Source: Candidatus Nomurabacteria bacterium
GTDB lineage: Bacteria; Patescibacteriota; Minisyncoccia; Phycocordibacterales; UBA9973
Length of the DNA: 36,211 bases
NCBI GenBank assembly: GCA_943354205.1
Contig: CALRBJ010000004.1
Coordinates: forward strand, 1-36,211
Reading direction: 5' to 3'
Position numbers and translations under genes: made by a program. The notes below the pieces were generated by a model, which was not told where the DNA came from, did not search any database, and worked only from the letters and a program-made list of their open reading frames with translations. Positions within the stretch are counted from its first letter, which is position 1. Every line of letters starts with the position of its first letter. Shown here in pieces: positions 1 to 36,211 of this stretch.

Positions 1-1827
1 GGACAGCCGAAGATTATCGAGAATATCGAGGGGGCGCGGACGACGCCGTCGATCGTTGCCGTGGCGAAAAATGGCGACCGATTGGTGGGGCTTCTTGCCA
101 AGCGCCAAGGCGTGACGAATCCGGAGAATACGATTTACGGTATCAAGCGCTTCATGGGGCACAAGTTCGACGATCCGGAAGTGCAGAAGGATATGAAGAC
201 GATGTCGTTCAAGATTCAGAAGGGCGCGGACGGCGGAGTGGAAGTGAAAATCGGAAATGAATGGAAGCGACCGGAAGAGATTTCCGCGATGATACTCGGC
301 AAGATCAAGGCCGATGTGGAAGCCAAGCTCGGCGAAAAGATTACCGAAGCCGTCATCACCGTGCCGGCATATTTCAACGATGCGCAGAGAAAGGCGACGA
401 AGGACGCGGGAGCGATCGCCGGACTCGATGTGAAGCGCATCATCAACGAACCAACTGCTGCCGCGCTCGCGTATGGATTTAATTCAAAGAAAAATGAAAA
501 GATAGTGGTGTACGACTTTGGTGGAGGCACCTTCGACGTGTCCGTACTCGAAGTGGGCGATGATGTGATAGAAGTAAAATCTACCGATGGCGACAGCCAC
601 ATGGGCGGTCGCGATATCGACCACAAAATAATCGGTTGGATTGCTGATGAATTCAAGAAGCAGTCCGGCGTGGATGTGCGTGGTGACATGCTCGCTCTTC
701 AGCGTTTAGACGAAGCAGCGGAAAAGGCCAAGATTGAACTCTCTACCGCCGTTGAAACTGAAATAAATATTCCATTCATCACTTCTACTGCCGCCGGCCC
801 GCAACACCTTTTGATTAAAATGACTCGCGCGCAGTTAGAGTCCATCGCCGATGAATTTGTATCTCGTTCTATCGAGATCACTCGTCGCGCGCTCGAGGCC
901 TCGCCATTTAAAATGGGTGAGATAAATGAAATCATCATGGTCGGTGGACAAACTCGCATGCCAAAAATCGTGGAGGAAGTGAAGAAACTTTTCGGTGGCA
1001 AAGCGCCAAACCTCTCTATCAACCCGGACGAAGTCGTCGCCCTAGGGGCAGCCGTGCAAGGCGGTGTGCTTCGCGGAGAAGTGCGCGATGTCTTGCTTCT
1101 TGATGTCATTCCGCTTTCACTCGGTATTGAAACGCTCGGCGGAGTAGCCACAAAACTCATAGATAGAAACACAACTATTCCATCTTCTAAATCACAAGTA
1201 TTTTCTACCGCAGCCGACAATCAAACCAGCGTGGAAATCCACATCACTCAAGGCGAGCGCCCAATGGCCTCGGACAATAAATCGCTCGGACGATTTATCT
1301 TGGATGGTATTCCTCCAGCTCCGCGCGGTATACCACAAGTGGAGGTGACTTTTGATGTCGATGCCAATGGTATTTTAAATGTCACCGCAAAAGATAAAGC
1401 ATCTGGTAAAGCACAGAGCATTCGCATCGAAGCTTCTGGTGGTTTGAAAGATGAAGATATAAAACGCATGCAAGCCGATGCTGAAGCTCATGCCGATGAA
1501 GACAAAATTAAAAAAGAAAATGCCGATGCAAAGAACACGGCCGAGATGATGCTCTTTACCGCCGAGAAATCTTTGAAAGATTTTGGTGATAAGGTTACTC
1601 CAGAAATAAAATCTGGCGTAGAAGCAAAAATGGCCGAGCTTCGCACGGCCAAAGAAGGCACCGATATGGCAGCCATAAAATCAGCCACTGAAGCCCTCTC
1701 GGTAGAAATGCAAAAGATCGGCGAAGCGATGCAAAAGGCCGGAGTACCTCCGACCGAGGCGCCAAACCCAAATGAACCCGAAATAAAAGACGCCGAGGCG
1801 ACCGATGTGCCACCGGAAAATAAATAA
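1..1827 (+). CDS. dnaK: Chaperone DnaK (Hsp70), 5'-truncated by window edge
   Basis: Frame 1 is open from base 1 ([20 protein letters not shown] precedes the track's internal GTG at 61). Hsp70 signatures [37 protein letters not shown] stop at 1825. Confidence 0.97.
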
Positions 1828-1840
1828 AAGTAATTCACAG

Positions 1841-1868
1841 AAAAAATCCCCATCGAGGGGATTTTTTC
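1841..1868 (+). terminator. Rho-independent terminator after dnaK
   Basis: aaaaaatcccc-atcga-ggggatttttt: GC-clamped stem flanked by an A tract and a T tract. Confidence 0.8.
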
Positions 1869-1876
1869 TGTATAAT
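1869..1876 (+). promoter_or_regulatory. -10 element (TGTATAAT) 7 nt upstream of GTG 1884
   Basis: TATAAT at 1871-1876 preceded by TG. No Shine-Dalgarno sequence between it and the start. Confidence 0.4.
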
Positions 1877-1883
1877 TATTTGT

Positions 1884-4800
1884 GTGAAAAAATATATTTT
1901 CCTGTTTTTATTTTTATTCTCCTTTTTTCTGTTTTCAAATCCAAGGGTATTTGCTGATCTCGCCACCGGCCAAATCACCGAAGATACCACGATAGGTCCA
2001 GAAAACAATCCTTACGATTTTATAAATACCGGTGTCCATATTCATCCTGGGGTCACACTCACTGTTTTACCGGGCGTAGAATTTCTCTCTACTGGTTTTT
2101 ACAATGAAGGCACTTTAAATGCGCTTGGCACTGAATCAAGCAGGATCAATTTCAATAATACAAATTTCTTTACCGCATCTCTGTCTACCACAAATATTAG
2201 CTATGCTGATTTTGATGGAGCAGATGCTTGGTTTGCCAATCAGGGCGCGATGAATGTGGACCACACGAATATAAGCAATGTGGACGCCACAGCTTTTTCT
2301 AGTTGGCACTATCCGGCGACCCTAAATTTAAGTTATGTTAATTTTTCAAACATAAATGGCAGTGCGATAGAGATGTTTCAAGGCATACCCCTTGTGATCG
2401 ATCATTCTACTTTTGATACAGGACAGATTGGTATTCTAATCACAGATGGGTCGAGCCTAGACGCTGATCACTTGCTAATAAAAAATCAAACTATTTCTGG
2501 AATAGAGAGCTTGAATGATGCGCAATTGATGCGTATAAAAAATAGTGAAATTACACAAAACAATGTAGGTATTTATGCAAGCGTAAATGAGCAAGTAGAC
2601 ATTTCTGGCAACAGCATACATGGCAATACTATGGGTGCAAAAGTCGATAGTGCGCCAGACTTGGATTTCTCCGGCAATTGGTGGGGAAGCGCTAGCGGGC
2701 CTACGCATGCGAGCAACCCTGGTGGAACTGGCGATGCTATTTCTGACAATATTATTTATTCAAATTTTCTGACCGAAGATCCATTCAACCCAACCCCGCC
2801 TCCTCCGCCAACCAAAGATCCGGTTATTTTGATTCCGGGGATAATGGGCTCGGAACTAAATAAAAATTACGGAGATTTTGGGAATATTTGGGCGAATATT
2901 ATAGATATATTAACCCCTGGTCCTGATAGTTTCTTGAATGATTTATCTTTGAATTTAGACGGAAGTGAAAATTCTAGTTTCCCGATGACTGTCGGTGATA
3001 TTATTCGTCATACTATGGTTGGTTTTATAGATAATCATGTTTTTGATGGCATGATTTCTACACTCGAATTAGGGGGATATATGGAGGGTACAGATCTTTT
3101 TGTATTTCCTTACGATTGGCGTAAAGATAATTCTGAGTCAGCACTTTTATTAAAAAATAAAATAGAACAAGTACTCGCCCAAACTGGTAAAACGAAAGTA
3201 GACATCATCGCGCACAGCATGGGTGGGTTGGTGGCAAAGAAATATATTGCCGACAATGGCGCAAATAGTATAGACCAATTAATTTTCCTCGGTACCCCAC
3301 ACTTGGGTGCGCCGAAAGCATTTAAAGCTCTAATGTATGGAGATGATATGGGAGGAAATCTTTTTGGCAAAATTCATTTTCTAAATCCAAATAGAGTAAA
3401 AATAATTTCTCAAAATATGCCGGCCACATACCAGCTTTTACCAAGCAGAAAATATGTAGACACAAATGGCAATAAATATGTCACAGATTTGGTCACTCAA
3501 TATTTATCTGGATCTGGCAATAATAACTATCTTTTAAATTATGACGACACAAATACATTTATGATCAACCAAGGTAGAAATTCATCCATGATTCCTCTCG
3601 CCGACAATTTTCACGGAAGTATAGATAGTTTAGATTTGTCTGGTGTAAATACTTACAATTTTGCGGGCTGTGGTAGAGAAACTATCGGTAAAATTACGGC
3701 TACAAAAGAAAAAAGTACTACTTCAAATGGAGTTTCGATAAAAGACGATTACAAATTGAGCTACACAAATGGCGACGACACTGTGCCTTTGCTTTCGTCT
3801 GTCGTGAATTATGGTGAAAAATATTATGTAAAAGGTTTTAGCCACGGTTCTCTGCCGTCGGGCACAGGTGTGCCCGATACAGTGCTGGCTATTCTCTCTG
3901 GCGACAGTATTCCAACTTTTTCAAATATAAGCACGAGTATAAACCCATGTTTTGTTTCAGGCAAAGTCGTCAGTGCGCACAGCCCAGTGTCGCTTGATAT
4001 TTATGATAGCCAAAATTACCATACAGGGTTTGATATAAATGGCGATATTGAATACGGCATAGATGGGGTGTCTTATGATGAAATAGAGGGTGTGAAGTAT
4101 GCTTTCTTGCCGGAGGGCGCGGATTATAGGGTGGTCACTCGTGCTACCGATACCGGCGCATACGATTTTTATGTGGAAGAAATCGCCAGTGACGACACAA
4201 AGACAGCCGAGTATTATTGGAATGAAGTACCGCTCGATACTTTGAATGCAAATGCAGAAATAGATATTACAAGTGGCTCGCAAAATTATGAAATAAAAAT
4301 CGATGAGGATGGGGACAGCGTGTTTGAGAAAACCTTGATGCCAAGCTCTAGTCTTTCCGGGGCGCAATCGCTCGACACGATTCCTCCGCAAACAAGTGTG
4401 ACCACATCCGGGCAAACACTAGCGCTAGATTCTACAGACGATAATTCTGGCGTATTAAAAACAGAATATTCTACTGATAATACAAATTGGAATTTATACA
4501 CAAAATCATTTTCCACTGCTGGCACAGTATATTATTTTTCCACCGACAATGCCGGCAATATCGAGGCTATAAAAAGTGTAGATATGCCTACACCACCCTC
4601 AAACCCACCTTCTTCAGGCGGAGGAGGACATGCAGCTATTATTTTTCCACAAAGCCTAGATACTGTTGCATTTATTCCCCATGACAAGGGGGATAAAGGA
4701 GGTTTGATTAATTTGATTCCGAGCCCAGTATTAAAAAATATCGCATTCAACCCTCCAACCCCAAAACCCACTCAACCAAAAATAACAGAACAAAACCCGA

Positions 4801-4925
4801 CCACAAATACATTATCAGCCAACGCTGGAAGTGCTGGTATCCCGATAAAAGCCATAACGATAGTGGTGTCTGTCGGTATAATCGGTTGGGCGATTATTCT
4901 ATATAGGAAATTTTTGCTAAAATAA
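1884..4925 (+). CDS. Large cell-anchored surface protein: signal peptide, parallel beta-helix, LCAT/lipase-type alpha/beta hydrolase, Ig-like region, C-terminal TM anchor
   Basis: Signal peptide MKKYIFLFLFLFSFFLFSNPRVFA. PbH1/NosD-like repeats ending in NWWGSASGP. Pro linker PTPPPPPT. Lipase motifs PVILIPGIMGSEL, YDWR, nucleophile elbow AHSMGG (about 3210-3227), GDDTVP, SHGS. Module DTIPPQTS...DNAGNIE resembles an Ig-like domain. Pro-rich stalk, then helix IVVSVGIIGWAIILY followed by RKFLLK. Confidence 0.85.
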   Translation: MKKYIFLFLFLFSFFLFSNPRVFADLATGQITEDTTIGPENNPYDFINTGVHIHPGVTLTVLPGVEFLSTGFYNEGTLNALGTESSRINFNNTNFFTASLSTTNISYADFDGADAWFANQGAMNVDHTNISNVDATAFSSWHYPATLNLSYVNFSNINGSAIEMFQGIPLVIDHSTFDTGQIGILITDGSSLDADHLLIKNQTISGIESLNDAQLMRIKNSEITQNNVGIYASVNEQVDISGNSIHGNTMGAKVDSAPDLDFSGNWWGSASGPTHASNPGGTGDAISDNIIYSNFLTEDPFNPTPPPPPTKDPVILIPGIMGSELNKNYGDFGNIWANIIDILTPGPDSFLNDLSLNLDGSENSSFPMTVGDIIRHTMVGFIDNHVFDGMISTLELGGYMEGTDLFVFPYDWRKDNSESALLLKNKIEQVLAQTGKTKVDIIAHSMGGLVAKKYIADNGANSIDQLIFLGTPHLGAPKAFKALMYGDDMGGNLFGKIHFLNPNRVKIISQNMPATYQLLPSRKYVDTNGNKYVTDLVTQYLSGSGNNNYLLNYDDTNTFMINQGRNSSMIPLADNFHGSIDSLDLSGVNTYNFAGCGRETIGKITATKEKSTTSNGVSIKDDYKLSYTNGDDTVPLLSSVVNYGEKYYVKGFSHGSLPSGTGVPDTVLAILSGDSIPTFSNISTSINPCFVSGKVVSAHSPVSLDIYDSQNYHTGFDINGDIEYGIDGVSYDEIEGVKYAFLPEGADYRVVTRATDTGAYDFYVEEIASDDTKTAEYYWNEVPLDTLNANAEIDITSGSQNYEIKIDEDGDSVFEKTLMPSSSLSGAQSLDTIPPQTSVTTSGQTLALDSTDDNSGVLKTEYSTDNTNWNLYTKSFSTAGTVYYFSTDNAGNIEAIKSVDMPTPPSNPPSSGGGGHAAIIFPQSLDTVAFIPHDKGDKGGLINLIPSPVLKNIAFNPPTPKPTQPKITEQNPTTNTLSANAGSAGIPIKAITIVVSVGIIGWAIILYRKFLLK

Positions 4926-5284: not shown

Positions 5285-6940
5285 ATGACGCAAAATGAGG
5301 CATTGGACATATTGAAGACCGGAGCGAATGTATTCCTCACGGGCGAGCCGGGGGCGGGGAAAACGCACACTATTCGCGAATATGTGGCCTATTTGCGCGC
5401 TCACGGCATCGAGCCCTCTATCACAGCATCCTCGGGTATTGCCGCCACGCATATTCACGGGCAGACCATTCATTCTTGGGCCGGTATCGGCATAAAAAAT
5501 CATTTGAGCGATTACGATTTGGACGCGATGAGCAGTAAAGAATATTTGGTAAAAAAAATATCTCGCGCGACGGTTTTGATAATCGATGAAATTTCTATGC
5601 TTGGCGCCGGCACTTTGCAAATGGTAGATCAGGTTTGCCGTGCGATAAGGAACAACGACAGCGCATTTGGCGGGCTCCAAGTAGTGCTCGTCGGCGACTT
5701 TTTCCAGCTCCCGCCGATTTCAAGCTACGGTTCCAATTCCGAATTTGCGTATGAAAGCCCAGCTTGGAAATCTTTGTCTTTAATCACCTGCTATATCACC
5801 GAGCAACACCGCCAGGAGGACGGCGATTTACTCGCAGTGCTCTCGGCCATCCGCCGAAACGAAGTAGAAGAAATGCATTTTGAAAAACTGCAGTCGCGTA
5901 TCACTACAAAAGAGGCTAGTCCCGAAGGTATCACGCGTTTGTTTACCAAAAATGTTTCTGTCGATGCGCTCAACGACGAATCTTTAAAAAAAATTGTTGG
6001 CTTGGATTATGAATACGAGATGCAATCACAGGGTAAAGTTTCGATGGTGGAAGCTTTAAAAAAAGGATGCCTTTCGCCGGAAGTTTTGGTTTTAAAAAAA
6101 GATAGCGTGGTCATGTGTACTAAAAACAATATGAATGCTGGGTTTGTAAACGGCACATTGGGCAGGGTTGTCGATTTTCAAAAGGGAACTGATTATCCGA
6201 TCATCCAAACTCGCGACGGTCGCACCCTCACTATCGAACCTATGGAGTGGGTCGTCGAGGAGGACGGCAAAATCCGCGCGCGCATCACCCAAATACCTCT
6301 TCGCTTGGCCTGGGCGATCACCGTGCACAAGAGCCAAGGCATGTCGCTCGACTCCGCCGTCATGGACCTCTCGGACGTATTCGAATATGGGCAGGGCTAT
6401 GTGGCGCTCTCTCGCGTGCGCACTCTCTCGGGCATACATCTTTTTGGCTTAAATCAAAAATCTCTGCAAGTGCATCCCGAGGTAGCCTCGGTCGACGCGC
6501 ATTTTCGCCAAGTTTCCGACAAAGCCATGCATTCGTTCAGAGCTCTTGAAGAAAATGAATTGAAAAATATGCATGCCAATTTTATCCGCGCTTGCGGGGG
6601 TAATTTAGTGCCGGTGAAAAATGTTAAACCCGGTAAAAAAATATCCACCCAAGAAAAAACCTTGGCTCTTTTAGAAGCGGGCTTTACTATTTCAGGCATC
6701 GCCAAGGAGCGCGATCTAAACATCGGCACCATTATCGACCATGTGGATTATTTGGTAAAAAATGGCTCGTTTTCAAAAGAATCAGCGCTCAATCTATGCG
6801 ACCCTCGGCTCAAGCTCTCTTTGCCGATCATAAACAAAGCCTTTGATAAAAAGGGCACTATCGCGCTGGCTCCTGTGTTTTCGCACCTAAAAGGCGTTTA
6901 TTCATACGACGAGCTAAAGCTGGCCCGGGTGTTTTATTAG
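5285..6940 (+). CDS. PIF1/RecD-family ATP-dependent DNA helicase with C-terminal helix-turn-helix
   Basis: Walker A GEPGAGKTH, LIIDEISM, VGDFFQLPP, TVHKSQGMSLD, YVALSRVR. The C-terminal ISTQEKTLALLEAGFTISGIAKERDLNIGTIIDHVDYL resembles the HTH tail common in bacterial PIF1-like helicases. Confidence 0.9.
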   Translation: MTQNEALDILKTGANVFLTGEPGAGKTHTIREYVAYLRAHGIEPSITASSGIAATHIHGQTIHSWAGIGIKNHLSDYDLDAMSSKEYLVKKISRATVLIIDEISMLGAGTLQMVDQVCRAIRNNDSAFGGLQVVLVGDFFQLPPISSYGSNSEFAYESPAWKSLSLITCYITEQHRQEDGDLLAVLSAIRRNEVEEMHFEKLQSRITTKEASPEGITRLFTKNVSVDALNDESLKKIVGLDYEYEMQSQGKVSMVEALKKGCLSPEVLVLKKDSVVMCTKNNMNAGFVNGTLGRVVDFQKGTDYPIIQTRDGRTLTIEPMEWVVEEDGKIRARITQIPLRLAWAITVHKSQGMSLDSAVMDLSDVFEYGQGYVALSRVRTLSGIHLFGLNQKSLQVHPEVASVDAHFRQVSDKAMHSFRALEENELKNMHANFIRACGGNLVPVKNVKPGKKISTQEKTLALLEAGFTISGIAKERDLNIGTIIDHVDYLVKNGSFSKESALNLCDPRLKLSLPIINKAFDKKGTIALAPVFSHLKGVYSYDELKLARVFY

Positions 6941-7020: not shown

Positions 7021-7275
7021 ATGGCGGAAAAAACATCTGCATTTATGAAACCAATGACTTTGAGTCCAGAGCTCGAAGCAGTAGTCGGAAAGGGCCCAAT
7101 GCCTCGCTCCGAAGTAGTGAAGGCTCTTTGGGTATATATAAAGAAGAATAATCTTCAAGACCCAAAGGCAAAGCGCAATATCGATGCCGACGCAAAGCTA
7201 AAGGAAGTATTCGGTGGCAAAGCGCGCGTAGACATGTTTGAAATGACAAAGCTCGTTTCAAAACACCTTTCGTAA
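7021..7275 (+). CDS. SWIB/MDM2-domain protein
   Basis: 84 aa. LSPELEAVVGKGPMPRSEVVKALWVYIKKNNLQDPKAKRNIDADAKLKEVFG matches the SWIB domain pattern. Confidence 0.85.
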   Translation: MAEKTSAFMKPMTLSPELEAVVGKGPMPRSEVVKALWVYIKKNNLQDPKAKRNIDADAKLKEVFGGKARVDMFEMTKLVSKHLS

Positions 7276-9056: not shown

Positions 9057-9065
9057 TGCTATACT
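9057..9065 (+). promoter_or_regulatory. Extended -10 TGCTATACT, 6 nt before ATG 9072
   Basis: Matches the window-wide grammar of TGnTAnAnT plus 6-7 nt plus ATG. Confidence 0.6.
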
Positions 9066-9071
9066 AAGCGC

Positions 9072-9437
9072 ATGATTATAATATTTTTTATCGGGTGAGT
9101 TTTACTAGGAGGTTACTTTATCTATTCCGGCTACAACCATTTTAAAAAATTGGATGCCATGACTGCGTATGCAAAGATGAAGGGTGTTAAACATCCCAAA
9201 ATTGCGACTCAAATCACCGGGGGTATGCTTCTTTTGGGTGGAGCTCTCTTGGTTATAGGGCTCAAAATGAAAATCGGGGTCATTATTCTATCTATATTTA
9301 TGATCGGTGTTTCGTTCATGATGCATGCTTTTTGGAAAATAAAAGATCCGGCATTGCAGGCAACTGAAAAAATGGCTTTCTTGAAAAACATGGCTCTCTT
9401 GGGCGCGCTTCTGATGCTTTTCCACACGTTGTGGTAA
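9072..9437 (+). CDS. DoxX-family membrane protein interrupted by an in-frame TGA at 9096-9098 (recoded codon, or a very recent pseudogene)
   Basis: MIIIFFIG-TGA-VLLGGYFIYSGYNHFKKLDAMTAYAKMKGV... is continuous with track ORF 9150-9437. DoxX-like HAFWKIKDP...FLKNMALLGALL. No in-frame ATG, GTG or TTG between 9099 and 9149. Confidence 0.6.
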
Positions 9438-10124: not shown

Positions 10125-11207
10125 ATGGCAAAAGACTATTACAAAACATTGGGCGTAGAAAAAAATGCTTCAAAAGAAGATATAAAAAAAGCTTTTCACA
10201 AGCTCGCGCACAAATATCACCCAGATAAAAACAAAGGTGATGATGCGAAATTTAAAGAAGTGAACGAAGCCTACCAAACTCTCTCGGACGAGCAAAAGCG
10301 CGCGAGCTACGACCAGTTTGGCGAAGCCGGCGCGCAAGGATTCCCGGGCGGAGGCGCGGGCTTTGGCGGTTTTGACTTTTCTGGTTTTCAAAATGGCGGC
10401 GCCCAAGGTTTCGACATGGGCGATCTTGGCGATATTTTTTCTGATTTCTTTTCCGGCGGTATGGGCGGGGGCCGAGCACAGGCACGCCGAGGCCGAGACA
10501 TTTCTACCGAAATTTCTATCCCATTTTCCGAATCCATTTTCGGCGTCACTCGCAAAATTTTAATTACAAAAGTTTCTACCTGCGAGACCTGTACCGGTAG
10601 TGGCGCCAAACCAGGCACAAAAGAAAAAACATGTACGAAATGCAACGGCAAGGGAAGCATCCGTGAAAACCGCCGCACCATTTTCGGCACGGTAGCCACC
10701 ACTGCCGTGTGCGATGTGTGCCACGGCTATGGTAAAGTGCCGGAAGAAAAGTGCCCTACATGCAAAGGCCATGGCGTGCTTCGCAAAGAGGAAGAAATTT
10801 CTCTCAATATTCCTGCCGGCATAAACAATGGTGAGATGATTCGTATGCCTGCCATGGGCGAAGCTATTGCGCACGGGCAAACCGGCGATTTGTATATAAA
10901 GGTGAATGTGGGTCGGCATCCAGTGTTTACCCGCGAGGGCAACAATTTGGTGATGGATTTGAATATCAAGCTCTCCGATGCCTTGCTCGGTGCTGAATAC
11001 ACGATTGAAACCTTGGATGGAAATATTTCTGTAAAAATTCCCGAAGGCGTTTCGCCAAATGAAATCCTGCGCGTGCGCGAACGCGGAGTGCCATCATCTC
11101 GTGGCAAACGCGGGGACCTCCTCATAAAAATCCACCTCAAACTGCCCCAAAAACTCTCCCGCGACGCCCGCAAAATTATTGAGGATTTAAAAAAGGAGGG
11201 GATATAG
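10125..11207 (+). CDS. dnaJ: Co-chaperone DnaJ
   Basis: J domain DYYKTLGV...HPDKN, a G/F-rich region and four CxxCxGxG zinc-finger repeats. Confidence 0.95.
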
Positions 11208-11230
11208 GAGTAGCTATATTACGTTTGGTA

Positions 11231-11239
11231 TGTTATAAA
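11231..11239 (+). promoter_or_regulatory. Extended -10 TGTTATAAA, 6 nt before ATG 11246
   Basis: Fits the leaderless spacing and supports ATG 11246 over the track's TTG 11225. Confidence 0.5.
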
Positions 11240-11245
11240 TTTCTT

Positions 11246-12052
11246 ATGAAAAAGTATCTTTTAATGATAGTTTTGACTGTTATCGTTGCGCCATCGGTTG
11301 CTCTTGCTTCTTGGTGGAATCCATTTTCATGGAAGATTTTTTCGCATAAAAAAGACGTTGTACCACAGACTAATCAAGTTGTAGTCGATCAAATAATAAC
11401 GACTTCTCCTATTGAGAAAAAAAATAAAAATACTAAACAAGAAACGTCGAATATTCCTATAATTAAAGAAAAAGAACCTGCGCCTACGCCTGTTACTGAT
11501 GTTTGTAATAATATTGGTGGAATTCAAACTACCGTTCCTGCTGGATGGTATTTATCTGAAAGTAATATATGTAAAATTATTTCCCATGATAATCAAACTA
11601 ATATTCCAATCGCAGAAATACCAGCACCGTTAATTTCACCAGGGTTAACAAAATTTACAAATAAGGATAATATTTCTTATGCATACTTTATAATTGATAA
11701 TACTTCCGATAAATTACTTGAAATAAATGGTATAAACTTTAATTTGGTTAGTAATGATCTAAGGGTTTCCGGTTATGATCTTGCTCTCATTTCAACTGAA
11801 GGCAAGGAAAATTCTTCCTTCATCCCTCTGGGTAGTTACCATAACTCTGAGTATTCATATAATTTTGATTATCCAGTATTTGTTAAATCAAACTCGAGTG
11901 TAAATTTATTTGTTGCCTTTAAATCATTAAGTGGAACTTTGGAATTTAATAAAACTTACGTGGAAGCAACAATAACTAAAATAAAATCTAATACACCTAC
12001 CGAATTTAAATACTTACCAGTTAGTAGCAAGGCAATATATGTTCATCAATAA
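11246..12052 (+). CDS. Secreted hypothetical protein
   Basis: Signal peptide MKKYLLMIVLTVIVAPSVALA followed by SWWNPFSW. Lys/Thr-rich linker. Markedly AT-rich. No recognisable domain. Confidence 0.7.
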   Translation: MKKYLLMIVLTVIVAPSVALASWWNPFSWKIFSHKKDVVPQTNQVVVDQIITTSPIEKKNKNTKQETSNIPIIKEKEPAPTPVTDVCNNIGGIQTTVPAGWYLSESNICKIISHDNQTNIPIAEIPAPLISPGLTKFTNKDNISYAYFIIDNTSDKLLEINGINFNLVSNDLRVSGYDLALISTEGKENSSFIPLGSYHNSEYSYNFDYPVFVKSNSSVNLFVAFKSLSGTLEFNKTYVEATITKIKSNTPTEFKYLPVSSKAIYVHQ

Positions 12053-12119
12053 ATAAATTTATTCTACTAGTAATATTAGTGAAAACAACTTGTGCGGGAA
12101 TCAAAAAAATAATATAAGA

Positions 12120-12860
12120 TTATTTCGCACCAGATAAGTATTCACATAATCTATACCCTAAATTAGTTAGCCTAAATTTTCCACCATTTCTAAAAACCTC
12201 AACTTCATCGTATTTATCCTCAGGTAAGGGATCAAGTGTAAGTAGCATCTTTTTTACCTTTTTTGAATATCTTGGTAATATTAGAGATAATTTAATGAGA
12301 TTTTCCTCTCTATTAGTTATTAATTCTGGAATTTTGTGGCCAATTTGGAGAGCCACAGAAGAAGCCCATATTTCTGGGTTGTCGGTCCGGATATTTTCTT
12401 GTGTAACAATTTCACTCTGATTTGAAGCTATATCATATGAAGCTTTCAGGATTAGTATATCTTGTCCTGTTAATTGTTTACAAATTTGCATAAATTGATA
12501 TGCTAAAGATTGTTCCTGCTCCGTGGAATCTTTTTTAATTGAGCGAAAGAATATAGATTTCATAGCTTTTAGAGTTTCTTCATCAGGATTTTCTTCGTCA
12601 ATAAATTTAAGGATCTCGTAAAATGAAGAACAATCTGAAACACTAACTTCATCTTTTATTTCTTTGTTTTTATTTTTTTGTATGCATTCTCTCACGAACT
12701 CAGAGATTTTTTTAGTAACAATAGCTACGCCAACACTAGCGATAGCCATCCTGGGGTCAGTAATTGTTGTTGGAGTAAGAAAGCCCGTTAGGTCTGGCAA
12801 TAAAGACAACCCTGTTTCTTTTAAACTACCATTTTTGATTTTTATTTTTTTGTTTACCAT
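12120..12860 (-). CDS. Hypothetical 246-aa protein, faint resemblance to Abi-alpha/DUF4393-type proteins
   Basis: Clean ORF, markedly AT-rich and convergent with the preceding gene. It lacks the local leaderless promoter grammar. The segment EETLKAMKSIFF...FMQICKQLTGQDILILK recalls, from memory only, the DUF4393 pattern. Confidence 0.6.
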   Translation of the reverse strand: MVNKKIKIKNGSLKETGLSLLPDLTGFLTPTTITDPRMAIASVGVAIVTKKISEFVRECIQKNKNKEIKDEVSVSDCSSFYEILKFIDEENPDEETLKAMKSIFFRSIKKDSTEQEQSLAYQFMQICKQLTGQDILILKASYDIASNQSEIVTQENIRTDNPEIWASSVALQIGHKIPELITNREENLIKLSLILPRYSKKVKKMLLTLDPLPEDKYDEVEVFRNGGKFRLTNLGYRLCEYLSGAK

Positions 12861-12973
12861 AAATTATGTAATCCCTGTGTCACAAATCACTAAGTCTGCT
12901 CGCATGATTACACGCTGTGCGGTCTAAGTGTTCGCGACCCCGGCTCGGCTTGCTTCGCAATATGCCTGCGCCT

Positions 12974-13030
12974 TCACAAAAGCGAAAAAGATTAAAGCAG
13001 TTTAATCTTTTTGCGCTCCCGCTTTTGTGA
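12974..13030 (-). terminator. Long interrupted hairpin in the tRNA-Glu 3' trailer
   Basis: Outer arms tcacaaaagcg (12974-12984) and cgcttttgtga (13020-13030). Inner arms aaaaagattaaa and tttaatcttttt around loop gcag. The outer arm overlaps the last 3 nt of the tRNA. Confidence 0.4.
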
Positions 13031-13099
13031 CTCTACCGGGAATCGAACCCGGATTTAAAGCTTGAGAAGCTTCCGTCCTAACCGTTAGACGATAGAGCC
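13028..13099 (-). tRNA. tRNA-Glu (anticodon CUC), no encoded CCA
   Basis: Reverse complement is GGCTCTATCGTCTAACGGTTAGGACGGAAGCTTCTCAAGCTTTAAATCCGGGTTCGATTCCCGGTAGAGTCA. Cloverleaf with a 7-bp acceptor (one G-U), D arm GTCT/GGAC, anticodon loop TTCTCAA and T arm CCGGG-TTCGATT-CCCGG. Confidence 0.9.
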
Positions 13100-13114
13100 T
13101 AAAAATACCCAAAT

Positions 13115-13123
13115 ATAATAACA
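13115..13123 (-). promoter_or_regulatory. Extended -10 (TGTTATTAT on the minus strand) for tRNA-Glu
   Basis: Plus-strand ataataaca. Predicted transcription start is 8-9 nt before the mature 5' end. Confidence 0.45.
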
Positions 13124-13144
13124 CTTTTTTAAAAATTCGCAATT

Positions 13145-13153
13145 TGGTATAAT
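13145..13153 (+). promoter_or_regulatory. Extended -10 TGGTATAAT, 11 nt before ATG 13165
   Basis: Exact TGnTATAAT, divergent from the tRNA promoter. Confidence 0.55.
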
Positions 13154-13164
13154 TTCTGTATTAC

Positions 13165-13701
13165 ATGATTTACTTCATACGACATGGGGAGAGCGAGGCG
13201 AATGCGCGAAAGGTTTTTGCCGGCCAGCGGGATGATTCGTTGCTCACGGAAACCGGTCGGGAGCAAGCGCGGGCCACAGCTGAGGAAATTAAAAAAGAAG
13301 GGATTAGAATTGACAGAATAGTTTCTTCGCCACAAAAAAGAACTATGGAAACCGCTCAAATTGTGGCAAAAGAATTGGGTTACGATATTGAAAAAATAAT
13401 TCCCGATCCGCGAGTGATGGAATATGACATGGGTGATATTACTGGAACGCCGTGGCATGAAGTTTCATCTCAACAAATGATTTCTGGCGGCGGTGCAGAA
13501 AATCCTCAATATTTCTTAAAACGAATCTCTAGTTGTGTTGAAGATTTACAAAAGTTAGACGGCAATACACTTCTTTCTTCTCATGGAGGCGTTGGTAGGG
13601 TTTTGGAATCTATAAAGCAGGGAGTAAAAGTAGAAAATTTTTACGATATTCCGGTATATAAAAATGCTACCGTTATAGAGCTTGATTGGATAGAAAAATA
13701 A
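13165..13701 (+). CDS. Histidine phosphatase family protein (phosphoglycerate-mutase-like)
   Basis: IYFIRHGESEAN catalytic RHG motif, TETGREQA and a downstream SSHGG. Confidence 0.88.
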   Translation: MIYFIRHGESEANARKVFAGQRDDSLLTETGREQARATAEEIKKEGIRIDRIVSSPQKRTMETAQIVAKELGYDIEKIIPDPRVMEYDMGDITGTPWHEVSSQQMISGGGAENPQYFLKRISSCVEDLQKLDGNTLLSSHGGVGRVLESIKQGVKVENFYDIPVYKNATVIELDWIEK

Positions 13702-13705
13702 AAAA

Positions 13706-13732
13706 CCCTCTTACGATTTTATTCGAAGAGGG
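13706..13732 (+). terminator. Possible terminator hairpin
   Basis: ccctctt-N13-aagaggg. The T tract is weak. Confidence 0.4.
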
Positions 13733-13802
13733 AGCTTTAGTTCTGCATTGACGGACTAATTTTAGAAGTGTATATTCAAAATATACCAAAGCTCTTTGAA
13801 TT

Positions 13803-14213
13803 ATGAAAAATAAAATAAAACGATACGCTTGGCTCGCCGCGCTCTTCTCGATGATTTTCCCAGCATCTCTTTGCTCGCCTGGAGAAATAAAAACTTTGTT
13901 CGCTTACTTTTGGTTGATAGGAATAGCCAATAGTTCGTTCCTTTGTGGGGTTGTTTTCTTCATTTTAAAAGAAATCGGGGAAGAAAAAATAACAAAGCCG
14001 AGATTTAGAAAAAATATACTAAGGATGATCAGAGCCCAATGCATTCTTGCCGGCACATCCTATTTAGCATTGATTTTTCTTTTTCCTCGAGCGCTCGAGC
14101 TTGGTTTCTTTCTAGGTGAGATTGTGTTGGTGGCAACTATCACTGGACCATTTTGGATTGGGTACCTAGCTGCACATTCAGTACTAAAAATTTTAGAAAA
14201 ATCTCCCGCTTAG
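13803..14213 (+). CDS. Hypothetical 4-TM membrane protein
   Basis: 136-aa ORF with hydrophobic helices. No recognisable family. Confidence 0.6.
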   Translation: MKNKIKRYAWLAALFSMIFPASLCSPGEIKTLFAYFWLIGIANSSFLCGVVFFILKEIGEEKITKPRFRKNILRMIRAQCILAGTSYLALIFLFPRALELGFFLGEIVLVATITGPFWIGYLAAHSVLKILEKSPA

Positions 14214-14228
14214 AAAAAAATTCCAACC

Positions 14229-14255
14229 AAACCGGACAATGTTCCGGTTTTTTTA
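14229..14255. terminator. Terminator hairpin aaaccgga-caatgt-tccggttt plus T tract
   Basis: 8-bp stem followed by ttttt, lying between convergent genes. Confidence 0.75.
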
Positions 14256-14291
14256 TTTGTCTACTGTAAAAACGATCGTTTTCTGGGGAAA

Positions 14292-14325
14292 TAAAAAACC
14301 CTTCGCGTTTTTAAGACGGAAGGGG
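14292..14325 (-). terminator. Minus-strand terminator after the 106-aa gene
   Basis: Minus strand reads cccttc-N14-gaaggg followed by tttttt. Confidence 0.6.
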
Positions 14326-14357
14326 AGGTTGGCCATAGTCCTCGGCGTAGTGATATT

Positions 14358-14678
14358 TTAATTTTCAATTTCCTTGCCCGAGAAATCATGGGGCCCACTA
14401 AAGAACACCACTTTCGGGTCGTCATCAATAACGAGGAGAGCGTATCTTTCATCGTCGAGCTTGCCGTACAGACTCAAAATATTGTCTTTGTGGCTTTGTA
14501 TTCTCTCACAATGAAAATCATACTCGTGTTTTTCTTCTTCTAAAACGACGACTTTTCCTTCGATAATATCATCATCGGAGGCTCTGAAATTTTGAGGTTC
14601 CCATTCTGGCGGGAATCCTAGAAGTTTGTGGGGCATTTTTTTAGCTGGTTTAAGGGACAAAAATAAGAACCGATCCAT
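14358..14678 (-). CDS. Hypothetical 106-aa protein downstream of cysS
   Basis: ORF in the same orientation as corA-cysS. No recognisable motifs. The start is uncertain because there is an internal Met at MPHKLL. Confidence 0.5.
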   Translation of the reverse strand: MDRFLFLSLKPAKKMPHKLLGFPPEWEPQNFRASDDDIIEGKVVVLEEEKHEYDFHCERIQSHKDNILSLYGKLDDERYALLVIDDDPKVVFFSGPHDFSGKEIEN

Positions 14679-14706
14679 ACGGTTCTCTGGGTGGCAGTAT
14701 AGGACT

Positions 14707-19861: not shown

Positions 19862-19870
19862 TGGTATAAT
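19862..19870 (+). promoter_or_regulatory. Extended -10 TGGTATAAT, 6 nt before ATG 19877
   Basis: tggtataat-cgagcc-ATG. Lies back to back with the minus-strand element 4 nt away. Confidence 0.65.
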
Positions 19871-19876
19871 CGAGCC

Positions 19877-20326
19877 ATGCTTCAAACAGAAATAAAAGCA
19901 TCTATAAAAGAAGCCATGCTAGCGAAGGACAAAGTGCGCTTGGAAGTACTGCGTTCTATCGTGGCGGCTTTTACAAACGATTTGGTGGCCAAAGGCCGAA
20001 AGCCCGACGAATCTTTGACCGATGAAGAAGTCATCGCTATCATCACTAGGCTTTCTAAGCAACGCAAGGATTCTATCGATCAGTTTACCAAAGGTGGCCG
20101 CCCTGAACTCGCGGAAAAAGAACAAGCCGAGCTCGCAGTGCTTTTAAAGTACCTTCCTGAAATGATGAGCAAAGACGAAGTGTTGAAAATCGCCCAAGCT
20201 AAAAAAGTCGAGCTCGGCATAGAAGATGCGACAAAAAAAGGCATGCTCATGTCAGCGCTGATGAAAGACCTGAAGGGTAAAGCCGATGGTATGGTAGTAA
20301 AAGAAGCAGTCGACGAACTTTTTTAA
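19877..20326 (+). CDS. GatB/YqeY domain protein
   Basis: 149 aa. IKEAMLAKDKVRLEVLRSI...LKYLP matches the YqeY-like pattern. Confidence 0.88.
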   Translation: MLQTEIKASIKEAMLAKDKVRLEVLRSIVAAFTNDLVAKGRKPDESLTDEEVIAIITRLSKQRKDSIDQFTKGGRPELAEKEQAELAVLLKYLPEMMSKDEVLKIAQAKKVELGIEDATKKGMLMSALMKDLKGKADGMVVKEAVDELF

Positions 20327-20687: not shown

Positions 20688-21593
20688 ATGGCGGAAAAAA
20701 TAAAAATCATCACACATAGTGGCACCTTTCACGCAGACGAAGTCTTTGCCTGCGCGACTTTGGCTATCATTTTTGAAAAACAAGGAAAAGAATTTGAAAT
20801 CATCCGTACGCGAGATATGGAAATAATAAAAACAGGCGATGTTGTCGTAGATGTAGGCGGAATTTATGATCCAGAAAATAATAAATTCGATCACCACCAA
20901 CCCGATGGCGCCGGTACTAGAGAGGCTGGAGCAAAAATTCCCTACGCATCTTTTGGTCTAGTTTGGAAAAAATTTGGAGAGGAGGCTGCTGATTCAAAAG
21001 AAATCGCAGAAAAAATTGAATCGAAAATCGCGGTGCCGATAGATGCGGTAGATAGTGGTATACCAATTATGAATTCTAAATTTGAAGATGTTTTTGATTA
21101 TGATATTGGCCGGATTGTAGATTGTTTCGTACCATCTTGGAATGAAATAAATGTAAAAACTGACGATATGTTTTTAGAAGCTATGGGCTTAGCTCGCAAA
21201 ATTCTGGAGCGTGAAATTGTTCGTGCTAAAGGAAAACTTGAAGCAAAAAAGAAAGTGATCGAAGGATACGAAAATGCCGAGGATAAACGCGTTGTTGAAT
21301 TTAAGAATTATTATCCGTGGAAAGAATTTTTGAAACCATACCCTGAACCACTTTTTGTGGTGACTCCACGAGAGGAAGGCAAATGGCAGGCTGAAGCGGT
21401 ATTCGATGGAGACCCATATTTTATGAAGCGTAAAAAATATTTTCCAGAAGCTTGGGCTGGCTTGAGAGACGATGAAATGGCGAAAGTCACAGGAGTTGCA
21501 GATGCTGTATTTTGTCATACTCATCGCTTCTTAATCGTCGCGAAATCTCGCGAAGGAATACTCGCGCTTGTGAAAATGGCCCTAGAAAGCTAG
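20688..21593 (+). CDS. MYG1/UPF0160-family metal-dependent hydrolase
   Basis: ITHSGTFHADEVFACATL and FDHHQ motifs. The ATG immediately follows the upstream TAA. Confidence 0.88.
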   Translation: MAEKIKIITHSGTFHADEVFACATLAIIFEKQGKEFEIIRTRDMEIIKTGDVVVDVGGIYDPENNKFDHHQPDGAGTREAGAKIPYASFGLVWKKFGEEAADSKEIAEKIESKIAVPIDAVDSGIPIMNSKFEDVFDYDIGRIVDCFVPSWNEINVKTDDMFLEAMGLARKILEREIVRAKGKLEAKKKVIEGYENAEDKRVVEFKNYYPWKEFLKPYPEPLFVVTPREEGKWQAEAVFDGDPYFMKRKKYFPEAWAGLRDDEMAKVTGVADAVFCHTHRFLIVAKSREGILALVKMALES

Positions 21594-25158: not shown

Positions 25159-25353
25159 ATGGATAATATAAAAATAGAAGAAATGGAAGTACTGCCTCTG
25201 ACTGTAGAAATGCTAGATGAACACATTGTAAATTTGGAGAATACTATGAACTCTCTTTCCAAATGCACAGATTCTGATTGCAAAAGCGATGCGAGAGATA
25301 TAGCAAGAATAATCGCTGGCTTGCGAGCAAGGAGGGATTCTCTACAGAATTAA
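25159..25353 (+). CDS. Hypothetical 64-aa protein
   Basis: ORF wedged between gap and rpiB. Its stop lies 1 nt before the rpiB ATG. No homology recognised. Confidence 0.4.
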   Translation: MDNIKIEEMEVLPLTVEMLDEHIVNLENTMNSLSKCTDSDCKSDARDIARIIAGLRARRDSLQN

Positions 25354-26503: not shown

Positions 26504-27388
26504 GTGTGGGTGATTCTCACCGATGCTAAAATAAAATTTTTAGAAGAAAAAGCCAACGACATTCGCATGTCGATAATTGAAATGCTTTTGGAAGCAGGCT
26601 CTGGGCACACTGCCGGCCCGCTCGGCATGGCCGACATATTTGCACTTCTCTTTTTTCATACATTAAAACAAGATCCAAAAAATCCTAGCTCTCCAGAGCG
26701 CGATAGGCTAGTGCTTTCCAATGGACACATTTGCCCAGTCTACTATGCGACCATGGCGCATGCAGGATATTTTCCTATATCTGAATTAAAAACTTTAAGA
26801 AAATTCGGTTCGCGTTTGCAAGGTCACCCGCATCGAGAATTTATGCCGTGGCTCGAAACATCTTCCGGACCTTTAGGTTCTGGAATTTCCCAGGCAGTTG
26901 GTATGGCTATTGCCGAGCGTATCGATCGGGGCGTGGGCTCAAATAAATTTATTTATTGTTTAACCTCGGATGGTGAACACGACGAAGGCAACACTTGGGA
27001 AGCAATACTGCTCGGCGCCAAAGAAAAACTCCACAATCTAATTGTGATAGTAGATCGCAACAATATTCAAATAGATGGCTTTACCGAAGATGTGATGCCT
27101 CTAAATGATTTGGCCCAAAAATACGAAGCATTCAATTGGCACGTGCAAGAAGTCGACGGGCACAATTTTGAAGCCATGAATTCCGCAATATCAAAAGCCC
27201 AAGCAGTCTTTGAAAAGCCTTCGGTCATCATCGCTCGCACTATCCCTGGCAAAGGTGTGCCCGAATTTGAGCGCGATTTTCGCTGGCATGGATACGATCC
27301 AAATGGCGCGAAAGCAAAAGAAGATTACACGCATGCATTAAAAGAGCTCCGCACGCTCGGCGGAAAAATTAAAAGCGAACACCAATAA
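26504..27388 (+). CDS. tkt: Transketolase, N-terminal (TPP-binding) subunit
   Basis: GSGHTAGPLGMADI, SNGHICP, TSDGEHDEGNTWEA. The start may be GTG 26510. Confidence 0.92.
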   Translation: MWVILTDAKIKFLEEKANDIRMSIIEMLLEAGSGHTAGPLGMADIFALLFFHTLKQDPKNPSSPERDRLVLSNGHICPVYYATMAHAGYFPISELKTLRKFGSRLQGHPHREFMPWLETSSGPLGSGISQAVGMAIAERIDRGVGSNKFIYCLTSDGEHDEGNTWEAILLGAKEKLHNLIVIVDRNNIQIDGFTEDVMPLNDLAQKYEAFNWHVQEVDGHNFEAMNSAISKAQAVFEKPSVIIARTIPGKGVPEFERDFRWHGYDPNGAKAKEDYTHALKELRTLGGKIKSEHQ

Positions 27389-28380
27389 TGTTAAACCCGA
27401 AATTAAAATTAAATCCGAAAGTTTTTATGGACGATGTGGCGCAAGAGCCGATTCGCAAAGGTTTTGGCGTCGGCCTCGTGCAAGCGGGAGAAAAATATGA
27501 AAATATCGTGGCATTGTGCGCCGACCTTACCGAGAGTACGCAAATGCTTCCATTCAAAGAAAAGTTCCCGAATCGTTTTGTGGAAATCGGCGTGGCCGAG
27601 CAAAACTTGGTGACAGTTGCTTCTGGCATGGCGGCCATGGGCAAGCGCCCATTCTGCTCTTCATATGCTATGTTTTCACCTGGCCGAAATTGGGAGCAAA
27701 TTCGCACCACGATTACCTACAATGATCGACCGGTGGTGATCGTCGGCTCTCATGCTGGTGTATCTGTGGGCCCAGATGGTGGCACGCACCAGGCGATAGA
27801 AGACATCGCTCTCATGCGTGTATTGCCAAATATGATTGTGCTCTCGCCATGCGATTCTATCGAGGCCAAGAAAGCCACCATGGCGCTCGGTAGTATTGAA
27901 AAGCCTGCATATCTGCGTTTGGCTCGCGAAAAGACAGCGATAATTACCACTGAAGAAACTCCATTTCAAATAGGCAAAGCAGAAATATTCTTCGCGCCAG
28001 ATGGAGTAGCGCATGTGGGTATCATCGCCACTGGCGCGCTGGTGCGTACCGCCATGCTTGCCGCTCGCGATTTAGAAAAAGAGGGGATAAAAGTAAAAGT
28101 CATGAACCTCTCTACGATAAAACCGCTCGACACTGAAGCCGTAATAAATCTAGCCAAAGAAACTAAAAAAATAATTACCGTAGAAGAGCATCAGGTCATG
28201 GCGGGTATGGGCAGCGCGGTTGCCGAATGTTTAGCTCAAAATTATCCTGTGCCGATAGAATTTATCGGCATTCAAAACAAATATGGCCAGTCTGGTAAAC
28301 CAGAAGAATTGATCGAGCACTATGGTATGGGGCGAGAATCGATAAAAGAGGCGGTGCGAAAAATAATGAAGAGAAGCTAG
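27388..28380 (+). CDS. tkt: Transketolase, C-terminal (pyrimidine-binding) subunit
   Basis: FVEIGVAEQNLV and GPDGGTHQAIEDIALMR. The ATG overlaps the upstream TAA (TAATG). Confidence 0.92.
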   Translation: MLNPKLKLNPKVFMDDVAQEPIRKGFGVGLVQAGEKYENIVALCADLTESTQMLPFKEKFPNRFVEIGVAEQNLVTVASGMAAMGKRPFCSSYAMFSPGRNWEQIRTTITYNDRPVVIVGSHAGVSVGPDGGTHQAIEDIALMRVLPNMIVLSPCDSIEAKKATMALGSIEKPAYLRLAREKTAIITTEETPFQIGKAEIFFAPDGVAHVGIIATGALVRTAMLAARDLEKEGIKVKVMNLSTIKPLDTEAVINLAKETKKIITVEEHQVMAGMGSAVAECLAQNYPVPIEFIGIQNKYGQSGKPEELIEHYGMGRESIKEAVRKIMKRS

Positions 28381-34683: not shown

Positions 34684-35661
34684 ATGTCTTTAATAGATAA
34701 ACTATCCGAATTAAAAAAGAATCACCAAACCTCGTATCTCGCGGAGAGTTATGAGAAACTTTTGCGTGAGGAAGAAGAAGTACGAAAGATGCTGGAGAGC
34801 GATGGCTCACTCCACGATATGGCTGCTGAAGAATTAGCGAATATTGAAACTCAAAAAGAGGGAATCGAAACACAAATAAAAAGCATCGAGGATAAAGAAA
34901 AAGAGCAAGAAGAATTTCCAAACGAAGTCGTGCTCGAAGTGCGCGCTGGCGCGGGGGGCGATGAGGCCTCGCTCTTTGCCTGGCAAATAGCTCACATGTA
35001 CGAGCGCTATGCCGAAGTGCAAAAATGGAATTGGAAAATAAACTACGAATCGACCAACGAAATCGGCGGATACAAAGAAGCCTCATTTGAAATAAAGGGC
35101 ACTGATGTGTACAAAAAACTTCGCTACGAAACAGGTGTGCACCGCGTGCAAAGAATTCCTGGCACTGAAAAAAATGGACGCATCCATACTTCGACTGCCT
35201 CTGTCGCCATCCTGCCAATCAAAAAGAAAAATACTTTTGTCATAAATCCAACTGATTTGGAAATGGAGTACTCGCGCTCGGGTGGAGCCGGCGGACAAAA
35301 TGTGAACAAGGTAGAAACCGCCGTACGCCTGATCCACAAACCGACTGGCCTCGATGTGCGCTGCACCAGCGAACGCTCTCAGCTGGCGAACCGTGAAAAA
35401 GCGATGCTTATTTTGACCGCCAAGATTCAACAAATGAAAGACGAAGAAGAAGCCAAGAAATATTCGGCTGATCGCAAGGGGCAAATCGGCACGGGGGATC
35501 GCAGCGAAAAAATCCGCACTTACAATTATCCTCAAGACCGCGTGACCGACCACCGCATAAAGCAGTCTTGGTCCAATATTCCTTCCATTATGGAGGGAAG
35601 GATAGACAAAATCATTGAAGCGCTAGAATCTGGAACTGTCGGCGATTCAGATGAAGAGTAG
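34684..35661 (+). CDS. prfA: Peptide chain release factor 1
   Basis: GGQ motif [20 protein letters not shown]1-type tripeptide P-x-T (RIPGTE). The ATG directly abuts the rpmE TAG. Confidence 0.95.
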
Positions 35662-35690: not shown

Positions 35691-35719
35691 TTGCATTTTT
35701 GCATAAAGTATGCTATACT
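35691..35719 (+). promoter_or_regulatory. Promoter TTGCAT, 17-nt spacer (its last 3 nt, tgc, form an extended -10), TATACT, giving a 5' UTR of about 100 nt for the RRM gene
   Basis: -35 at 35691-35696. Extended -10 at 35711-35719. A hairpin at about 35790-35816 lies just upstream of the ATG. Confidence 0.6.
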
Positions 35720-35822
35720 ACCCCGCGTAGTAATAATAGCGTTTTTGTGTTTAAGCATTGCGCAGTTTGCTACTGTTAAAAGTAATTTTTGTGTACTTTT
35801 TATATAAAAGACACAGTAATCA

Positions 35823-36125
35823 ATGGCTAAAAAGCTATATGTTGGTGGTTTGCCTTACAGCACTACTGACACTGAGTTGAAGTCACACTTCGCTCAAGCT
35901 GGTTCAGTAGAATCAGCAACCATTATCATGGACAAGATGTCTGGCCGATCCAAAGGTTTTGGATTCGTAGAGATGTCTAATGATGAGGAAGCACAAAACG
36001 CTATCTCTATGTTCAACGGAAAGGATTTCGGTGGCCGTAATCTTACAGTCAACGAAGCTCGCCCTATGGAAGCTCGCGCTCCACGTGAAGGAGGAAACTT
36101 CTCTCGCGGTCGCAGAGAGTTCTAA
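35823..36125 (+). CDS. RRM-domain RNA-binding protein
   Basis: RNP2 LYVGGL and RNP1 KGFGFVEM. Arg/Gly-rich tail. Confidence 0.9.
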   Translation: MAKKLYVGGLPYSTTDTELKSHFAQAGSVESATIIMDKMSGRSKGFGFVEMSNDEEAQNAISMFNGKDFGGRNLTVNEARPMEARAPREGGNFSRGRREF

Positions 36126-36137
36126 TATTGAACTAAC

Positions 36138-36166
36138 AAAAAATCCCGCCTTGGCGGGATTTTTTG
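36138..36166 (+). terminator. Rho-independent terminator
   Basis: aaaaaatcccgc-cttg-gcgggatttttt. Confidence 0.85.
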
Positions 36167-36211
36167 TTTTGTGTCTCTATTGTACCAAGCTCGAACAATT
36201 TTTCAAAACAA

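Follow-up and report, generated by a model that had tools for sequence, protein, structure and literature searches.

Stop Codons and Release Factor of the Window

We analyzed the use of UGA (TGA in DNA) as a stop codon in a 36,211-bp stretch of DNA, contig CALRBJ010000004.1 of a Candidatus Nomurabacteria bacterium. The whole stretch is referred to as the window, and it encodes release factor 1 (RF1, gene prfA). The window was 94% coding with a GC content of 43% and an AT content at third codon positions (AT3) of 0.56, and 41 coding sequences (CDSs) were recognized in it, the majority of them with Pfam or NCBIfam support. This total includes a cold-shock protein gene and a 64-aa open reading frame (ORF). 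Our own gene list gave 27 TAA, 14 TAG (34%) and no TGA stops, which was identical to the counts of the first-pass annotation. The stops, the two small genes and the release factor locus were as follows:

Ends of plus-strand genes with a TAG stop: 6940, 7691, 9056, 11207, 14213, 21593, 22614
Ends of plus-strand genes with a TAG stop, continued: 24099, 26494, 28380, 32359, 34683, 35661
16104-16106, minus strand: TAG stop
Window stops other than these 14 TAG: all TAA
7485-7691, plus strand: cold-shock protein gene, 68 aa, stop TAG
25159-25353: 64-aa ORF, stop TAA
34462-34683, plus strand: rpmE (ribosomal protein L31), abutting prfA (TAG, then ATG)
34684-35661, plus strand: prfA (release factor 1), 325 aa, P-G-T and GGQ motifs, stop TAG

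Compared with a generic bacterium, in which about 24% of the stops are TGA, the absence of TGA from 41 stops had a p of ~1e-5. TAG and TGA have equal base content, and this composition-free comparison gave 14:0 (p = 6e-5), yet off frame within the window genes TGA was common, with 544 occurrences vs 324 of TAG. The avoidance of UGA in the window is therefore selective and non-random, and is not an effect of base composition. As had been reported earlier, in-frame TGA was also absent from all 41 CDSs, with the exception of one codon in a DoxX-family gene (9096-9098).

The release factor of the window is a bacterial class-I RF1, and the earlier reading of its P-x-T motif was borne out by model and structure scores. 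The protein carries the Pfam PCRF and RF-1 domains and scored 377 bits against prfA models compared to 226 bits against prfB. Against known structures it reached 246-264 bits with full-length RF1 and 230-231 bits with truncated RF1 chains, compared to 122-149 bits with release factor 2 (RF2, gene prfB). It is shorter than the RF1 of E. coli and Thermus by about 30 N-terminal residues (domain 1), as are the RF1 proteins of all sister species, and its PCRF match begins at profile position 30. The absence of these residues left the prfA score slightly below the curated cut-off of NCBI. The closest sister locus also had the rpmE-prfA pair. Across the RF1 proteins of the clade, the P-x-T motif was unusually variable at its middle residue (A 54, D 12, S 5, G 3, E 2, and others).

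Stop Codon Usage in Sister Species

The window RF1 was 64-82% identical to the RF1 of 80 metagenome-assembled genomes (MAGs) labelled Nomurabacteria, Paceibacterota or Parcubacteria, all of them species-representative genomes and RAAC4_OD1_1 among them. The gene order of the window was common to the loci L084-L087, and its closest relative in GTDB was CAITGV01 (Umea1p3_bin-723). Judged by its sequence, the window organism is a member of the Parcubacteria/Paceibacteria of the 'Nomurabacteria' type. Paceibacteria and Minisyncoccia are synonyms, since the order UBA6257 is placed in the class Paceibacteria in older GTDB rows and in Minisyncoccia in release 226. The contig derives from a lake-water metagenome (ENA assemblies ERZ27280317 and ERZ27280321).

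The 80 loci around the RF1 homologues, about 1.3 Mb in total, were used as the sister set. Greedy ORF calls in these loci gave 871 TAA, 200 TAG and 42 TGA stops. Restricted to genes with homologues in other loci, the counts were 721, 149 and 20 (2.2% TGA), and the 20 homology-supported TGA stops came one each from 20 different species. The excess of TAG over TGA (149:20) had a p of 7e-26. Other genome regions of related MAGs showed the same pattern, with TAA/TAG/TGA counts of 22/3/0 and 11/5/1. No TGA was found among the 17-18 stops of the syntenic nearest relative (L084/L086), nor among the 16-20 stops of the closest GTDB species (L002).

The rarity of TGA is thus a trait of the whole clade and is not peculiar to the window genome. 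The probability of 0/41 was 0.40 at the clade rate of 2.2% TGA and 0.12 at 5%, so that the window is typical of its clade and the absence of TGA is the expected outcome there. The first-pass annotation had called this absence unexpected by chance, which holds against a generic bacterium and fails against the clade. A reading of it as special to this genome falls with the sister counts and with the published profile of the sister genome RAAC4_OD1_1. In the comparison with sister genomes that the first-pass annotation had proposed, TGA is rare clade-wide and still terminates conserved genes in sister species.

A purely compositional account, in which an AT-leaning genome with normal RF2 prefers TAA and the sample is small, is very unlikely. 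TAA was indeed the majority stop, many of the relatives have a GC content of 30-38%, and skewed codon usage has been linked to low GC (Kantor et al., 2013; PMC3812714). However, the moderate GC and AT3 of the window, the TAG:TGA ratios of the window and of the sisters, and the frequency of off-frame TGA all speak against it. Moreover, the sister loci with a GC content of at least 42% (42-59%) had TAA/TAG/TGA stops of 110/36/5 (3.3% TGA), so a higher GC does not rescue TGA. In the control, RF2-bearing Patescibacteria contigs of another class with 35% GC, TGA made up 3/16 and 4/11 of the stops (19-36%).

UGA as a Working Terminator in Sister Species

In several sister species, TGA was observed at the exact conserved C-terminus of a gene. 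The prfA genes of L013 and L053 end in this way, and fba (L024 and L078) and a FAD oxidase gene (L054 and L079) end at TGA exactly where their homologues stop. In L009, L018 (RAAC4_OD1_1) and L025, the TGA that closes the gene upstream of rpmE stands at one and the same position. The species with TGA-ended essential genes have an RF1 that is 72-75% identical to that of the window. UGA is thus still a functional stop within the clade, and this speaks against RF2 having been lost generally. The earlier proposal named lost or weak RF2 function, of which a general loss is not supported by these terminators.

The sequence 3' of the TGA shared by L009, L018 and L025 was similar among the three (LFL... 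or LFY... if read through). Either this TGA is ancient and tolerated, or the promoter region of the downstream rpmE is conserved.

Inside conserved regions of the 80 sister loci, no in-frame TGA was found in trusted frames except in L036. There, codon 101 of a 2,974-aa repeat protein (10988-19909) is a TGA in a Gly column; the position is Gly in four homologous repeats and the TGA is one base from GGA. The probable origin of this TGA is a nonsense change or an error of sequencing. A naive screen for TGA in all frames of the sisters was swamped by shadow frames and was discarded in favor of the trusted frames. The apparent internal TGAs of other sister genes belonged to TGnTATAAT extended -10 promoters that lie upstream of the actual start ATG, and these signals were spurious because the ORFs had been extended upstream into such elements. 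Extended -10 promoter-like elements of this type were seen about 6-10 bases 5' of the ATG in sister loci such as L006, L012, L014, L028, L036 and L070. Elements that close to the ATG suggest that mRNAs of the clade may be leaderless or have very short leaders.

The In-Frame TGA of the DoxX Gene

The single in-frame TGA of the window lies near the start of a gene for a DoxX-family membrane protein:

9072-9437, plus strand: DoxX-family membrane protein gene, 121 codons, interrupted by TGA at codon 9
9096-9098, plus strand: only in-frame TGA of the window, at a conserved Arg position

The automatic DoxX gene call began only at the ATG at 9159 (92 aa). In the region 9057-9074, a promoter-like element, TGCTATACT, lies six bases before the ATG at 9072. 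The first transmembrane helix spans the TGA, and the Pfam DoxX match begins one residue after it.

The residue aligned with the TGA was Arg in 15 of 15 aligned DoxX homologues, and the Arg column was scored as near-invariant only because the window row has a stop. At this position, L084-L087, the syntenic relatives, carry AGA. So does P0001, the closest homologue (79% identity), which is part of the same gene order (HI0933, DoxX, hypothetical gene, dnaJ and onward). Decoding as Trp, Gly or selenocysteine was rejected, since the aligned residue is a conserved Arg. By this alignment, the TGA at 9096 is a nonsense mutation, one base away from an Arg codon, and is unrelated to recoding. It recurred in an independent Logan contig of about 5.9x depth that was identical to the window, a match with which an assembly error or a strain variant at 9096 is still compatible. 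Possible origins are pseudogenization, a strain variant, or an error in the contig of 5.9x depth.

Sense Use of UGA and tRNAs

All 107 recognized Trp codons of the window were TGG, and TGA occurred at no Trp position. The codons AAA, GAA and CAA made up about 75% of their own codon pairs in the window. With such a preference for A-ending codons, an established UGA = Trp assignment would give about 80 TGA among 108 Trp codons. Across the 831 Gly codons of the window, no TGA was found at a Gly position. Neither a tRNA-Trp nor a tRNA with a UCA anticodon was found within the 36-kb window. The tRNAs of 60 sister loci, which represent a small part of each genome, included no tRNA-UCA and consisted only of tRNA-Ile (GAU), tRNA-Glu and tRNA-Ala.

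Capture of UGA as a sense codon at a very early stage, as Trp (code 4), Gly (code 25) or even Arg, is extremely improbable on this evidence. The first-pass annotation had raised a recent capture. In its favor, the DoxX gene with the one in-frame TGA is promoter-proximal and otherwise intact; there is also the TGA at the Gly position of the giant repeat protein of L036, and both code 4 and code 25 exist in the phylum. However, the TGA of the DoxX gene stands at a near-invariant Arg, one base from AGA, and the two stray TGAs disagree with each other (Arg vs Gly). The ratio of 107 TGG to one in-frame TGA despite the strong A-ending preference, the lack of tRNA-UCA in the loci searched, and the use of TGA as a terminator in sister species also stand against a capture. 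The related claim that TGA is strongly avoided and not abundantly reassigned was supported by this ratio and by the 0:14 count against TAG.

The same distinction can be drawn from the hallmarks of the known codes. In-frame UGA at conserved Trp, a hallmark of code 4 lineages such as JAKLIH01 and Mycoplasmatales, was absent from the window. The window does lack UGA-terminated genes (0/41), another hallmark of that code, yet this is expected under code 11 at the clade's 2% rate. The abundant UGA at conserved Gly that marks code 25 was also absent, and the relatives are Paceibacteria, not Gracilibacteria. The profile of the rare-UGA Paceibacteria, in which UGA makes up at most about 5% of stops, UAG exceeds UGA, and no UGA occurs in conserved coding sequence, was the one found in the window.

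Search for RF2

The 80 sister loci contained no RF2 gene within ±10 kb of prfA, and all 81 release factors were of the P-x-T type. The prfB genes recovered from other Patescibacteria neighbor nrdD/nrdG and comEC. Since prfB is unlinked to prfA in the clade, its lack on a 36-kb contig is uninformative; the earlier remark that prfA is the only visible release factor is correct but has no bearing on RF2. By exact-protein look-ups, the contig goes no further than the window, and its leftmost complete gene had no record.

Wider searches recovered RF2 proteins of other groups. With E. coli RF2 as the query, only Enterobacterales matches and no Nomurabacteria RF2 were obtained. Scanning metagenomes for an AT-biased SPF...RHTSF pattern yielded 120 RF2 loci, of which most were marine or Gram-negative. 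One of them, L092, was a Patescibacteria prfB, and it led only to Falkowbacteria-like RF2s, with relatives labelled Falkowbacteria, Parcubacteria or Patescibacteria. A search of 50%-cluster representatives together with name look-ups returned RF2s of other phyla and unnamed proteins, and no Nomurabacteria RF2. In the literature, no explicit statement on RF2 in Nomurabacteria was found.

The prfB of L092 (3716-4762, minus strand) is flanked by nrdD/nrdG and comEC and keeps the classical programmed +1 frameshift site, GGAGG...CTT TGA C. In contrast, prfB at L209 and L212 (10001-11098) appeared as two uninterrupted ORFs.

Loss of RF2 in the sub-lineage of the window, with UGA left unassigned, stalling ribosomes, rescued or read through, and purged by selection, is rather unlikely. 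Such a loss would agree with the absence of TGA from the window, L002 and L084/L086 (about 0/79 overall), with the unusually frequent TAG of the window (34%), with the lack of any sense use of TGA there, and with the fact that prfB was lost twice within the same class. However, 0/79 is compatible with the clade rate of 2.2%, TGA ends essential genes including prfA in relatives whose RF1 is 72-75% identical, and the missing prfB of the contig carries no weight. Furthermore, RF2 is kept in genomes of the same class with about 4% UGA, and every RF2-less genome described so far already decodes UGA as Trp (PMC13092985). A more specific form, in which the mid-GC (43%) sub-lineage formed by the window, CAITGV01 and the L084 organism lost RF2 and left UGA unassigned without extreme AT pressure, is a quite doubtful proposition. 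If true, this sub-lineage would be a living case of the transient 'empty codon' stage in codon capture, in which ribosome rescue or read-through would deal with stray UGAs such as that of the DoxX gene.

Other Features of the Window

The supported genes of the window include dnaK, dnaJ, cysS, corA, rplU, obg, gatB, gap, rpiB and rpe, a split transketolase, fba, rplY, rpmE and prfA, and genes for cold-shock, SWIB, PIF1, MYG1 and RRM proteins. About 9 of the 41 CDSs were hypothetical ORFs without a family match, several of which are kept in syntenic relatives. The transketolase is encoded by two genes with a one-base overlap (TAATG) within a block of glycolysis and pentose phosphate genes (gap, rpiB, rpe, tkt, pfkB, fba). 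The window also holds a cluster of domains that are seen more typically in eukaryotes or symbionts, in five genes. These encode a protein of 1,013 aa whose lipase domain is LCAT/PGAP1-like, a PIF1 helicase that has an HTH_40 at its C-terminus, a SWIB/MDM2 protein of 84 aa, a MYG1 exonuclease and an RRM protein of 100 aa. The only tRNA of the window was a tRNA-Glu (CUC), besides which an Rfam scan of the window returned nothing. It adjoins an Abi_alpha-like (abortive infection) gene in a low-GC patch. The syntenic relative L084 has no Abi gene at the corresponding spot, so this region may be a small inserted island. The coordinates of these features are:

1884-4925, 5285-6940, 7021-7275, 20688-21593 and 35823-36125: regions with the eukaryote- or symbiont-type domains
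12000-14000: low-GC patch (GC 36%)
12120-12860, minus strand: Abi_alpha-like gene
13027-13099, minus strand: tRNA-Glu (CUC)
26504-27388: N-terminal transketolase gene
27388-28380: C-terminal transketolase gene

Proposed Explanation of the UGA Rarity

The window organism probably keeps to the standard bacterial code, with termination dominated by RF1 and a UGA stop that is nearly extinct and still functional. In the clade, UGA is a strongly disfavored stop, and termination relies almost wholly on UAA and UAG and hence on RF1. RF2-dependent termination at UGA may be weak or costly, through low RF2 activity, read-through by tRNA-Trp, or both. Selection would then convert UGA stops to UAA or UAG and hold UGA at about 2-5% of genes. 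Within codon capture, the clade would thus stand at the 'codon nearly extinct' stage, from which two other lineages of the class have moved on to the loss of prfB and UGA = Trp.

Several points weigh against this explanation. RF2 was not found in genomes of the Nomurabacteria type, and was seen only in UBA6257, according to the literature, and in the Falkowbacteria-like Patescibacteria. The genome of the window would carry prfB under the standard code, and prfB, tRNA-Trp and genome-wide stop counts all lie beyond the reach of a 36-kb contig. We infer the weakness of RF2, the proposed cause, from codon usage. In addition, the window and its two closest relatives have no TGA among about 79 stops, with p = 0.17 at a rate of 2.2% and p = 0.017 at 5%; on the latter value, the sub-lineage could be at a true zero of TGA stops.

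No evidence in the window indicates that UGA was lost or took on another meaning. Its rarity in the clade was published in 2013 and the picture for the whole class in 2026, and the present finding adds little to them. As a single class, the Parcubacteria/Minisyncoccia appear to cover the full course of UGA reassignment, from normal use (about 25% of stops) through near-extinction (2-5%), in which RF2 is kept, to UGA = Trp without RF2. A mid-GC member without UGA stops suggests that the avoidance comes from the termination machinery and not from AT pressure, and such a genome would be a good place to look for the step of RF2 loss. Gene callers and code predictors rightly treat genomes of this kind as code 11, and a nonsense TGA such as that of the DoxX gene can be mistaken for recoding.

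Comparison With Published Systems

The closest published case is RAAC4_OD1_1, in which UGA ends 34 of 687 ORFs (5%) without any sense use, and for which UGA was proposed to be heading for extinction and perhaps for reassignment (Kantor et al., 2013, mBio; PMC3812714). It belongs to the same clade as the window, with an RF1 that is 72% identical (sister locus L018), and its UGA stops are likewise very rare. It differs in that some of its conserved genes end in TGA, and none was seen to do so in the window. With a GC content of about 31%, AT pressure is a possible cause in RAAC4_OD1_1, whereas the window combines 43% GC with 34% TAG, so its avoidance is not compositional.

Within the same class, the code-11 genomes of the order UBA6257 use UGA for 3.9-26.8% of stops, and 26 of 27 of them had an identifiable RF2 (NAR 2026, Suppl. 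Table 2; PMC13092985). Among these, the JAVHQB01 genomes have 3.9-4.6% UGA, about 24% UAG and about 72% UAA, and their RF2 was found by tBLASTn (PMC13092985). Their stop profile is nearly identical to that of the window, and sense UGA is absent from both. However, JAVHQB01 belongs to another order than the Nomurabacteria-type relatives of the window, and of the two, only JAVHQB01 has an RF2 on record.

In the recoded family JAKLIH01, UGA makes up 0% of stops, 150-303 columns support Trp, and RF2 is absent (PMC13092985). A second UGA→Trp lineage, the genus GCA-2747955, was described in the gTranslate preprint, in which prfB was present in all code-11 relatives but one (10.64898/2026.05.24.727570). 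Both lineages belong to the same class as the window and share its restriction to the terminators UAA and UAG. Unlike the window, with its 107 TGG and no TGA at Trp, they have UGA at Trp columns, mostly a tRNA-Trp (UCA), and no prfB. Gracilibacteria and Absconditabacteria (SR1), which use code 25, belong to the same phylum (Patescibacteria/CPR), and UGA is no stop in them. They are of another class, and in them UGA is an abundant Gly codon read by a tRNA-Gly (UCA), whereas the window has no TGA at Gly.

A more general scheme was given by Wei, Wang and Xia (2016; PMC4989110), in which the usage of UGA relative to UAG tracks the abundance of RF2 relative to RF1. Together with the codon-capture route, it implies that lineages with low RF2 shed UGA stops before reassignment. 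The window fits this scheme as an RF1-dominated case. It departs from it in base composition, as low RF2 is tied there to a very high AT3, and the AT3 of the window is moderate.

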